This document shows positions 50,445 through 52,154 of a stretch of DNA of 64,000 bases, one piece after another (position 1 is the first letter of the stretch; the number at the start of each line of letters is the position of its first letter). The notes under the pieces are model-generated. The model was not told the origin of the DNA, searched no databases, and saw only the letters and a list, made by a program, of their open reading frames with translations. The DNA is taken from IMG/VR virus record IMGVR_UViG_3300028805_000065, positions 74,988 to 138,987 of that record, one strand, 5' to 3'. The stretch comes from a virus. Taxonomy: Duplodnaviria; Heunggongvirae; Uroviricota; Caudoviricetes. The translations under genes were made by a program, and so were the position numbers.

Positions 50445-52154
50445 ATGTCCGATTACCTTGAGTATTACTATGCCAATAACGGCGAAAAATTAAAGAAAAT
50501 GGTGGATGGAATCATTATTAACTTCGGTGGAATCTACGATAAAGATAAAGATGATTTCTATTCTATCGGAAACGAGGTGTTCGTATCAGCCCTCAAAACC
50601 TATAAAGAGGGTAAACAATCTTTTGGCAGTTATCTTCGGAACTGTATTTCCAATAAGGTAAAAACGGAAATCAGTAGAAGAAATGCCACTAAAAGAAAAG
50701 CCGAAGTTGAGTCGCTTGATTGCGAGGAATCTCCTATTGATGTTGTGGATGACAAAGACTTTGAAGAGGAACTTCTCTCAGAGGAATCCGCAAGAGAAAT
50801 GTTTGAGAGCCTCAGTAAGACTGGTCAAAAGATTATCAGCCTCAGGATTCAGAATAAATCTGATGTTGAAATCAGAGAGGAACTTGGGCTTACGAACCGT
50901 CAGTTCGAAGAAGAAATCAGAAAGGCACAGGCAAGAATTAAGAGTACATTGCCTGTAAAGAGAAAAACAATCTCAACAAATGAGAAGAATAATAAAGAGG
51001 GAAGAGAGGAGAAGACAATGAGTATTGCCCCCGATTATAGAGATGACTACCTTTCACTTGATTTGATTAAAGAAAAGATTGATGAGGGGGAATTGCTTAT
51101 CAATCATCCTAATCAGAGGAACGATTGGGCTTGGAGCAATGATGATATCAGCACTCTGATTGCGACTAATCTGCACGGATTCCGTATTAATCCTATTATC
51201 GTTTGTGAAGAAACAATGGATGATGGATCTCTCCTTAATTGGATTGTGGATGGTAAACAGAGGGTAACGGCTATGATTAACTTCGCTTATCCCTCAGAAT
51301 ACGGTAAGCCTTTCAAGATTTCCAAGAAGACTGAGTACGCCGAAATCCCTTATCAGACAAAGGTGACCGATGAGAACGGCAACATTGTCAGGGATGAGGT
51401 TGGTAGACCAGTCCTTGAGACAAAGGTGTTTGATATTCGTAACAAGACTTTTGCCGAGTTCCCGGAAGAACTTCAGAGAAGATTCAAATCTTATGTATTC
51501 ACGGTCACACGTTATGTCAATTGTGATTGCGATATGATTTCTTATCACATTCGCCGTTACAACAAGGGTAAGGCGATGAATGGAACAGAAAAGGCTACAA
51601 CATATCTCAATGTTAGGAATGCGGCTCTCTGCAAGAAAGTTGCTTGCAACAAATTCTTTGATGAAGTTCCGTTTAGCGCAAAGGGAATCAAGGGTGGAAG
51701 CGCTTGCAAGTGCGTCATGGATTCTATCTTTGTAATTAACTACAGAGATAATTGGGTAAAAGACCTCAACAAGATGTACACATTTTACAACGAGAATGGT
51801 GACCCCTCTGACTTCGACCTCATCGATGAGTACCTGACAAGGATCAGCGATGTTATTGATGAGGAAGTTGCGGAACTGTTTACCCCCAAGGATGCTCACC
51901 TCTTTATCGGAATCTTCCATTCGTTTGTTGAGAGCGGAAAAGAAGACTGGGAGTTCAACGAATTCTTGCATGACTTCATTGATGGCATGAGGAATAAGAA
52001 AGTTGGAGATATCACATTTGACGATATCGAGGTTGAGGGTGATAAGCCCGGAAGTAAGAACAGATCCACAAGAGATAGATTCTACATCGTAACTAAGATG
52101 GAGATTCTTGAGGAACTTCTCGATGAATGGTGTGGAAAGGGTGTAGCCGCATGA
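50445..52154 (+). CDS. sigma-70-family factor (regions 2 and 4) fused in-frame to a DUF262/ParB-like domain (569 aa)
   Basis: Region-2-like 'FYSIGNEVFVSALKTYKEGKQSFGSYLRNCISNKVKTEISRRN' and region-4 HTH 'ISLRIQNKSDVEIREELGLTNRQFEEEIRKAQARIKS'. After residue 192, DUF262 motifs 'NQRNDWAW' and 'IVDGKQRVTAMINF'. An internal ATG at 51018 with an AGAGGAG RBS could also give a stand-alone DUF262 product. Confidence 0.5.
   Translation: MSDYLEYYYANNGEKLKKMVDGIIINFGGIYDKDKDDFYSIGNEVFVSALKTYKEGKQSFGSYLRNCISNKVKTEISRRNATKRKAEVESLDCEESPIDVVDDKDFEEELLSEESAREMFESLSKTGQKIISLRIQNKSDVEIREELGLTNRQFEEEIRKAQARIKSTLPVKRKTISTNEKNNKEGREEKTMSIAPDYRDDYLSLDLIKEKIDEGELLINHPNQRNDWAWSNDDISTLIATNLHGFRINPIIVCEETMDDGSLLNWIVDGKQRVTAMINFAYPSEYGKPFKISKKTEYAEIPYQTKVTDENGNIVRDEVGRPVLETKVFDIRNKTFAEFPEELQRRFKSYVFTVTRYVNCDCDMISYHIRRYNKGKAMNGTEKATTYLNVRNAALCKKVACNKFFDEVPFSAKGIKGGSACKCVMDSIFVINYRDNWVKDLNKMYTFYNENGDPSDFDLIDEYLTRISDVIDEEVAELFTPKDAHLFIGIFHSFVESGKEDWEFNEFLHDFIDGMRNKKVGDITFDDIEVEGDKPGSKNRSTRDRFYIVTKMEILEELLDEWCGKGVAA

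Follow-up and report, generated by a model that had tools for sequence, protein, structure and literature searches.

Why should a tailed phage encode a sigma factor and a DUF262 sensor domain in one open reading frame (ORF), and does that frame specify one protein or two? The question arises at positions 50445..52154 of a 64,000-nucleotide stretch of DNA (the window, to which all unlabelled coordinates refer), which represents positions 74,988 to 138,987 of the IMG/VR virus record IMGVR_UViG_3300028805_000065 (Caudoviricetes). An initial annotation of this stretch, made from the letters alone, had described the ORF as an in-frame fusion of a sigma-70-family factor to a DUF262/ParB-like domain without its DUF1524 nuclease partner, had pointed to an internal ATG from which a free DUF262 protein could be translated, and had proposed a two-product locus or a sigma factor tethered to a nucleotide-sensing or DNA-modification-sensing module. 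The fusion proves to be a real and conserved gene, its two halves form an obligate module that occurs as one ORF or as two adjacent genes, and a conserved internal start argues strongly that the fused form makes two proteins.

Results

A conserved gene of large tailed phages

The ORF begins with ATG and runs for 569 codons, uninterrupted by stops, from the sigma part into the DUF262 part, as the initial annotation had it. An identical 569-aa protein is found on several independent contigs of up to 139 kb, and no source with an identical copy attaches a name to it. A large protein database holds approximately 55 full-length clusters (clustered at 90% identity) that are 54-98% identical, and more distant full-length relatives at 29-33% identity. 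Relatives are encoded by 109 viral contigs of IMG/VR, of which 80 were kept, many of them 70-180 kb long; nearly all of the relatives on these align across residues ~1-560. A further 40 loci lie in bacterial genomes, all of Bacillota and mostly of Lachnospiraceae (the others being one Oscillospiraceae, one Clostridiaceae and one metagenome-assembled genome of Bacilli), and include the complete chromosome of Lacrimispora sp. HJ-01, Lachnospiraceae bacterium 28-4 and E. plexicaudatum ASF492. Unrelated samples supply 75 distinct fused ORFs, down to 26% identity. One fused member, UniProt/BFVD A0A8S5SVH7, is annotated merely as a 'DUF262 domain-containing protein'.

Because the protein recurs on independent contigs and from independent sources, and because so many distinct fused ORFs and full-length clusters exist, a sequencing or assembly error that erased a stop or frameshift between two genes is excluded as the origin of the fusion, its probability being negligible; the one true assembly artefact that we encountered, gene call P0037, errs in the opposite direction as a false split. 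This 378-aa call from the internal ATG had looked like a very recent split, arises at a scaffold gap of 10 Ns and was not counted. P0038, another 378-aa gene call that begins at the internal ATG, likewise resembles a recent split.

The gene belongs to a large tailed phage of the gut, whose other genes in the window include a portal protein (6124-7485), a large terminase (7659-9515) and an exonuclease, and viral contigs as well as Lachnospiraceae genomes carry its wider family; the host of the window phage itself is presumably a member of the Clostridia. A search for relatives of the terminase, on the core or accessory status of the gene, returned only short contigs of 94-96% identity. The DUF262 proteins of Bacillus phages FADO and PK-3 are stand-alone and 22% identical, and no sigma gene was found among the annotated neighbours of the FADO DUF262 gene.

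Sigma and DUF262 as an obligate pair

Sources of relatives, 125 in all, were classed with separate hidden Markov models (HMMs) for the N-terminal and C-terminal halves. The two halves are fused in 84 (75 distinct sequences), split into adjacent ORFs in 38, and represented by the C-terminal half only in 3. The 38 split junctions contain no Ns, comprise 22 distinct sequences and use all three relative frames, and every one of them has a stop, a Shine-Dalgarno (SD) sequence and an ATG. The gaps between split genes range from a few nt to ~220 nt and reach ~1 kb in two loci (L072 and L074; L numbers designate the loci of relatives), where an insertion lies between the sigma and DUF262 genes (~8980-10000). 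The nearest split relatives of the window are L002/L003, from two independent samples, and L004, in which 8-14 nt separate the end of a 172-173-aa sigma gene from a DUF262 gene of 372-374 aa. The 173-aa sigma of L002 is 56% identical to the N-terminal half of the window protein, and the gene order in all three (Pyr_excise ... sigma, DUF262, RNA ligase) is that of the window. In L007 and L106 (TAG) and in L053-L056, L060 and L078 (TAA) the two genes share one frame and are separated by a single stop; read-through or recoding could also yield a fusion product at such junctions. Clustering at 70% identity gives 23 fused and 8 split lineages, and as the split forms are interleaved among the fused ones on the tree, fusion or fission must have occurred repeatedly.

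The pairing is equally apparent from the sigma side. An exhaustive search with the N-half profile returned 505 cluster representatives at E <= 1e-10; among the top 150 matches, 36 reach 550 aa or more and 98 measure 160-270 aa. For all four stand-alone sigmas that were looked up, the next gene encodes the same DUF262 family (E 1e-18 to 1e-118). Sigma and DUF262 are thus an obligate two-part module, present as one ORF or as two adjacent, translationally coupled genes, and this linkage, seen from both sides, suggests that they work as partners.

At L126/L127 (4001-8558) a split pair adjoins the bacterial plsX-acpP-rnc genes and may represent a prophage end or a domesticated copy. This gut lineage is very common; its sigma protein, P0066, is found in 81 blocks of the collection, with a longest contig of 181.6 kb.

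Domain composition of the fused protein

Both sigma peptides quoted in the initial annotation are present, FGSYLRNCISNKVKTEISR at residues 60-78 and LGLTNRQFEEEIRKAQARIKS at residues 147-167. The proposal to verify the domains with Pfam profiles was borne out for DUF262 and not for sigma region 2: Pfam Sigma70_r2 scores 18.6 bits against a threshold of 24, and the sigma assignment therefore needed further support. This came from TIGR02937, the NCBIfam model of the sigma-70 superfamily, which gives 44.9 bits with the N-terminal half alone (cut-off 42.9; 41.6 bits, slightly under the cut-off, with the whole protein) and spans profile positions 27-164 of 165. When 16 N-terminal halves were combined into a profile, it matched the solved structure of sigma-H (3mzy, E 3e-7) across regions 2 and 4, and also sigma-K and region 2 of another sigma factor, 8b3z. 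An AlphaFold2 model of the 569-aa protein (mean predicted local distance difference test score, pLDDT, 80.8) shows four sigma2 helices first and, after disorder at 84-111, four sigma4 helices; a second disordered segment (169-196) then leads to an alpha/beta domain, which a helical domain follows. Sigma2 and sigma4 folds are thus both present, one after the other, and the N-terminal half is a sigma-70-family factor of the size of the extracytoplasmic function (ECF) sigmas. It bears all the hallmarks of a working factor, and activity is predicted on these grounds.

The hallmark motifs of DUF262 that had been recognised by eye, NQRNDWAW (residues 223-230) and IVDGKQRVTAMINF (residues 267-280), fall within a match to PF03235 (GmrSD_N/DUF262; residues 223-372, E 2.4e-10, 41.3 bits against a gathering cut-off of 33.2). 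The pocket motifs QRxxxW, DGxQR and RYN are near-invariant across 113 fused and split sequences, with Q224 and R225 at 100%, W230 at 96%, D269 and G270 at 100%, Q272 at 99%, R273 at 96%, and R371 and N373 at 99%; NTP binding is therefore under selection. Fold comparison places BrxU first and also finds ParB and Noc, and the best PADLOC match is NsnA of the Menshen system (E 1.9e-13), which covers only profile positions 46-165 of 385. The nuclease partner is indeed missing, as no Pfam match to DUF1524 occurs in the protein or in the neighbouring genes. The C-terminal 190 aa are all-helical, lack the conserved His/Asn catalytic residues and show no nuclease motifs. Many relatives carry an additional acidic spacer and a helical tail of ~100 aa, absent from the window protein, in which no nuclease motifs were seen. 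From its position and secondary structure, the helical domain is probably of the ParBDB type, the DNA-binding domain of NsnA, GmrSD, SspE and DndB (PMC12065111).

The extreme C-terminus is biased towards alanine. In a survey of the window protein and 171 relatives, Ala is the last residue of 52% of 108 distinct tails (8.4% in the background) and Ala-Ala ends 17% of them (0.5%), irrespective of the extra tail domain; the window protein ends in ...WCGKGVAA (52131-52151). Such small, apolar ends, common to both predicted products, resemble ClpXP degrons of the ssrA/RseA type; cleaved RseA ends in VAA, a ClpXP degron.

A conserved internal start

The internal ATG at 51018 and the AGAGGAG before it are present as originally described (Table 1). 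Relatives retain this arrangement throughout: an in-frame ATG lies in the linker of all 75 distinct fused ORFs and of all 23 fused lineages, 1-16 codons (mostly 4-16) upstream of the first conserved DUF262 residue. An SD of -8 kcal/mol or stronger precedes 92% of these linker ATGs; the proportion is 1.2% among the remaining in-frame ATGs (1322) and 1.3% among ATGs regardless of frame (4272). The spacing of 6-10 nt between SD and linker ATG lies in the canonical range. The median SD energy of the linker ATGs is -10.9, compared with -7.9 for the N-terminal starts and -9.75 where split DUF262 genes begin; the start codon of the fused gene itself is served by an SD no stronger than the internal one. 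Counted by lineage (70% clusters), 18 of 23 reach this SD strength where 1.82 are expected from codon shuffles within each linker, and none of 200,000 simulations exceeded 8. This shuffling also ruled out a composition artefact of the purine-rich Glu/Lys/Gly linker. The linker itself (~28 aa) varies in sequence among relatives, and the SD is held at the nucleotide level despite the differing residues, in a different codon register in L088. Met192 of the window protein is aligned with, and homologous to, the ATG at which the split DUF262 genes start.

This pattern strongly indicates, on comparative sequence evidence, that the fused gene makes two proteins, a 569-aa sigma-DUF262 and a 378-aa free DUF262-ParBDB, and so lends strong support to the two-product locus suggested at the outset. 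The internal SD and ATG might instead be left over from recent fusions by stop loss, with only the full-length protein of consequence. Split and fused forms do interconvert, the internal ATG has its homologue in the start of the split gene, and several split pairs are one in-frame stop away from fusion, as listed above. Neutral relics should decay, however, and the signal persists in every fused ORF and in 23 lineages that share less than 70% identity and are 26-34% identical to the window, within an otherwise unconserved linker, at 10-fold the codon-shuffle expectation and with the strength of genuine starts, which makes such a leftover very improbable.

Table 1. Features of the sigma-DUF262 locus and its surroundings (residues, res, are those of the 569-aa protein; positions of the window unless a locus of a relative is named)
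Feature	Position	Strand	Remarks
Product 1, whole ORF	50445..52154	+	sigma2-sigma4, linker, ParB-DUF262, ParBDB-like helical domain; ~66 kDa predicted
Sigma region 2	50445..50699	+	res 1-85; four helices; DDFYSIGNEVF...FGSYLRNCISNKVKTEISRR
Sigma2-sigma4 connector	50700..50777	+	res 86-111; acidic, disordered; pLDDT <50 for res 84-111
Sigma region 4 helix-turn-helix	50778..50948	+	res 112-168
Inter-domain linker	50949..51032	+	res 169-196; disordered, pLDDT <50; holds internal start
Internal SD, AGAGGAG	51005..51011	+	6-nt spacer to ATG; -9.1 kcal/mol with anti-SD
Predicted product 2, free DUF262-ParBDB	51018..52154	+	378 aa, ~44 kDa, from ATG 51018-51020 (Met192)
ParB-DUF262 NTP-binding domain	51033..51569	+	res ~197-375; PF03235, PADLOC NsnA, fold matches
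C-terminal all-helical domain	51582..52139	+	res ~380-565; ParBDB position; secondary structure; end ...GKGVAA
Predicted host-type promoter P1 (sigmaA-like, extended -10)	50096..50124	+	TTGACA-N14-GTGGTATTCT; conserved in L002, L004, L131
Predicted host-type promoter P2	50214..50242	+	TTGACT-17-TATCAT
Perfect-consensus promoter, directed away from gene	50361..50390	-	TTGACA-18-TATAAT; conserved in L002, L003, L004, L131
Candidate cis-antisense small RNA against mRNA leader	50245..50354	-	~110 nt; 5' hairpin, then terminator hairpin and U-run
Counterparts of the antisense candidate	L131 939-1047; L002 4313-4415; L004 4306-4409
Early promoter family	36230, 36801, 38234, 39887, 42030, 44126	+	TTGACA-N14-(G)GTGGTATCAT
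Variants of the TTGACA-N14-GTGGTATCAT class	upstream of genes at 31205, 33975, 46252; at 50096 (P1)
Motif B, 18-mer	52179..52196	+	ATCRGAAGTAATATATRG; 25 nt past stop codon
Motif B copies	~501-512 (-), 17599-17616 (-), 21399-21416 (-), 52179-52196 (+), 54643-54660 (+)		AAAATC(A/G)GAAGTAATATATAG
Motif B elsewhere	~28203 (-); L131 2877 and 3971; L004 6143		~28203 degenerate
Tyrosine recombinase	46252-47247		conserved ~4.5 kb upstream in 17/31 lineages
DenV-like pyrimidine-dimer glycosylase	47691-48125
DarA_C-like small protein	48592-48792
RNA ligase	52341-53573		PHA02142 OB domain and RNA_ligase; downstream
SPFH/Band-7 protein	53739-54641		downstream
tRNA genes (8-9)	12929-13079, 16205-16475 (-); 55432-56522 (+)		Asn, Met, Trp, Leu-taa, Pro, Ile-tat, Gln

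Promoters and genomic neighbourhood

The 390 nt upstream of the gene are conserved in L002 and L004, whose proteins are ~55-60% identical, and hold the predicted host-type promoters and the candidate antisense RNA of Table 1. The antisense candidate has 3 compensatory pairs among 4 sequences and matches no Rfam family. Near-identical host-type promoters with an extended -10 recur through the + strand block and would mark its genes as early.

Motif B (ATCRGAAGTAATATATAG) occurs 5 times in the window, where 0.2 copies would be expected, and is syntenic in relatives; 4 copies carry at most 1 mismatch, where 0.19 would be expected even at 3 mismatches, and the copies are intergenic and on both strands. 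It is probably a phage-specific promoter class, and the copy at 52179 probably drives the RNA-ligase operon that follows. Motif B was considered for the promoter of the sigma factor described here and not adopted, being a contiguous ~20-mer with no -35 partner that may belong to a YonO-like RNA polymerase (RNAP). The candidate for that enzyme is an 886-aa protein (17757-20420, - strand) that has no Pfam match and carries a GADFDSD motif from residue 553. It matches a PF05183-positive protein of L104 (E 6e-7) and shares 40.6% identity over 788 aa with a protein of L128 (870 aa) that adjoins the sigma gene and a YomW-family gene; in 9 of 31 lineages the sigma gene has a similar RNAP-like gene ~3 kb away. 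Use of motif B by this polymerase rather than by a sigma factor is possible.

Between motif B and the RNA-ligase start, the leader 52197-52340 (L004 6160-6322; L002 6150-6237) has conserved blocks, CTGGAAAAACGGTGGATCA... and ...GTTTGG.CGCATGATT.ATT.AAAGGAG, that are kept across relatives at 55-60% protein identity, and it is possibly a structured 5' untranslated region. An intein that carries a LAGLIDADG homing endonuclease interrupts the RNA-ligase gene of L004 (6322-8679). Among the tRNA genes, ARAGORN reports an unusual tRNA with a 4-base anticodon (55920-55992), and a 106-nt tRNA-like match (56227-56332) is found by Rfam only. In the neighbourhoods of relatives, MazF/PemK occurs in 16 of 31 lineages and HTH-Fic in 10.

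Discussion

Relation to known systems

Both domain families are well known, and what appears to be new is their obligate pairing, which suggests a new class of sigma partner. No description of a sigma/DUF262 or sigma/ParB-like pairing, of such a fusion or of the nested second product was found in the searchable literature, in agreement with the initial impression that the fusion was undescribed. The closest parallels on the sigma side are ECF41, ECF42, ECF56 SigG1 and the sigma/anti-sigma operons, in which a minimal sigma2-sigma4 core is likewise followed by a fused or coupled controlling partner. The partner here is ParB-DUF262 with a ParBDB-like domain instead of a SnoaL, TPR, zinc-binding or membrane anti-sigma domain, so that membership of ECF41, ECF42 or ECF56, whose extensions are SnoaL-like or TPR, does not apply; the genes reside in phages and prophage-like elements, and the predicted internal start also yields the free partner.

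On the DUF262 side, GmrSD, BrxU and SspE share the QRxxxW and DGxQR motifs followed by a helical middle domain, and BrxU is the best structural match. They differ in having a DUF1524 His-Me nuclease and in belonging to host defence islands, whereas the present protein is phage-borne and has a sigma factor on the N-terminal side; a GmrSD-type restriction enzyme was rejected on the absence of DUF1524, the DUF262 domain notwithstanding. Menshen NsnA (PMC12065111), in which ParB-DUF262 and ParBDB are joined optionally by N-terminal 'sensor' domains that bind DNA, shares a core of DUF262 and helical domain with a variable N-terminal domain related to nucleic acids, and the sigma-like N-domains reported for NsnA resemble region 1.1 only, not sigma2-sigma4. 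A Menshen (NsnABC) system was rejected despite the NsnA-like protein: the downstream genes here are RNA ligase and SPFH instead of the NsnB ABC-ATPase and NsnC effector, and no ATPase family is conserved beside the pair in 31 lineages. A ParB partition protein is likewise not indicated, as the likeness to ParB and Noc is a distant one of fold (Foldseek probability 0.5-0.8), phrog_1033 ParB matches at E 0.04-0.08, and no ParA-like neighbour was found beside the gene in the window or in 31 lineages.

DndB, a repressor of the dnd operon that is ParB-like, carries a DGQHR motif and binds DNA in an ATP-modulated manner, offers a precedent for an NTPase of the ParB/DUF262 superfamily in transcription control. 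It represses on its own, within an operon for DNA phosphorothioation, with no sigma factor and with DGQHR in place of DGKQR; the present protein has no NCBIfam DndB match and no dnd genes nearby. DndB is listed among the ParB NTPases (PMC12065111). The phage T4 proteins gp55, gp33 and gp45 share the concept of a phage sigma activity coupled to a DNA-loaded, nucleotide-dependent protein; this is analogy only, as gp45 and gp33 have no homology to DUF262. Nested in-frame genes with two products are known from T7 gene 4A/4B, IF2 alpha/beta, ClpB 93/79 and CheA L/S, where an internal SD and ATG give a short isoform that shares the C-terminal domains and is able to co-assemble. In the present case the short isoform would be without the entire sigma factor, and relatives reach the same output by two genes.

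A proposed regulatory or targeting module

The explanation that best accounts for the locus as a whole, and that we regard, on sequence evidence, as somewhat probable, is a regulatory or targeting module of sigma and DUF262-ParBDB that makes two products. It unites the two proposals of the initial annotation, since the tethering of a sigma factor to a DUF262 module is favoured together with the two-product locus. Host RNAP would read the gene early, from sigmaA-type promoters and under antisense-RNA control, and the sigma half would then redirect the host core enzyme to phage promoters. The DUF262-ParBDB half bears, by analogy, all the hallmarks of the NTP-dependent DNA sensors of defence systems that switch a linked effector. 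Its obligate linkage to sigma, its repeated fusion through a flexible linker and the predicted co-production of the free form suggest that it serves as the regulatory or targeting subunit of the sigma factor, an NTP-dependent DNA-binding sensor. Because DUF262 domains dimerise in BrxU, the free DUF262-ParBDB probably co-assembles with the tethered form. DUF262-ParBDB may make the activity of sigma depend on whether DNA is present or on its state, for instance phage as opposed to host DNA. Sigma would then take the place that the nuclease holds under DUF262 in GmrSD, SspE and BrxU, and the sensor would lead to transcription in place of cleavage. A more specific form of this proposal, that an NTP-dependent DNA sensor or clamp permits the sigma factor to act only on the phage's own, replicating or chemically distinct DNA, with sigma-tethered and free subunits deliberately mixed and co-assembling, is put forward tentatively and with rather low confidence.

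Several observations weigh against a regulatory or targeting module. The AlphaFold2 model gives no confidence to the arrangement of the domains (predicted template modelling score 0.59) and predicts no interface between sigma and DUF262. Promoter and motif scans of the window yielded no promoter motif assignable to this sigma factor; motif B, the sole phage-specific repeat, resembles the promoter of a single-subunit RNAP, and on sequence grounds the 886-aa protein is probably such a polymerase, YonO-like and of the two-barrel RNA-dependent RNA polymerase fold. No DNA-modification gene came to light when 30 further proteins of the window were scanned against Pfam and PHROG. The accessory and counter-defence character of the neighbours (DarA_C, RNA ligase and tRNAs, with MazF and Fic in relatives) suits a role in conflict, and the loci were mostly retrieved through DUF262 motifs, which biases the proportions of fused and split forms.

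The foremost competing explanation, which we consider doubtful, is that DUF262-ParBDB inhibits the sigma factor, in cis when fused and in trans as an excess of free form, until NTP or DNA binding, or degradation from the Ala-rich C-terminus, sets sigma free. The order of sigma followed by a translationally coupled partner is that of classical sigma/anti-sigma operons, and the stronger SD of the partner (median -10.9 against -7.9 for sigma) predicts an excess of it. ECF sigmas with fused regulatory C-terminal extensions exist (ECF56 SigG1), and the alanine bias of the C-terminus, ...GVAA in the window, resembles that of ClpXP degrons. DUF262 is, however, dissimilar to any known anti-sigma domain, processive degradation from the C-terminus of the fusion would endanger the sigma half too, and the lack of a modelled interface weighs here as well. 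An inhibitor would be a special case of a regulatory partner, and the present data cannot separate it from the module proposed above.

More doubtful still is a role in conflict, in which the nuclease-less DUF262 acts as a decoy or dominant-negative against host enzymes of the GmrSD, BrxU and SspE type, or in which a prophage-borne DUF262 sensor detects foreign or modified DNA and sigma turns on an effector or prophage induction. The DUF262 systems characterised so far are all defence sensors (PMC12065111), and the best PADLOC match is NsnA. The neighbours named above, the tyrosine recombinase upstream in 17 of 31 lineages and the L126 pair beside host plsX-acpP-rnc are further points in its favour. 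A pure decoy, however, leaves the obligate linkage and the repeated fusion to a complete sigma factor unexplained, neither NsnB/NsnC nor any other effector gene is conserved adjacent to the pair, and phage promoters of the early class precede the gene, which very divergent large phages have kept along with a conserved upstream neighbourhood.

Conclusions

DUF262 has been characterised as an NTPase sensor that drives a partner effector (PMC12065111), its only known roles being those in anti-phage nucleases (GmrSD, SspE, BrxU) and Menshen; here it is phage-borne, nuclease-less and linked to sigma in hundreds of divergent elements, and the pairing points to a transcriptional output for a ParB-fold sensor. 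The sigma assignment corrects the public annotation 'DUF262 domain-containing'. Lachnospiraceae, an abundant gut family, are among the carriers of sigma/DUF262 loci, and the homologous loci in cultivable strains, together with the fused and split lineages and their conserved internal start, constitute a natural experiment. If DUF262-ParBDB does restrict the sigma factor to the phage's own DNA, this would represent a new mode of control of transcription initiation and the first non-defence transcriptional role for a DUF262 sensor.

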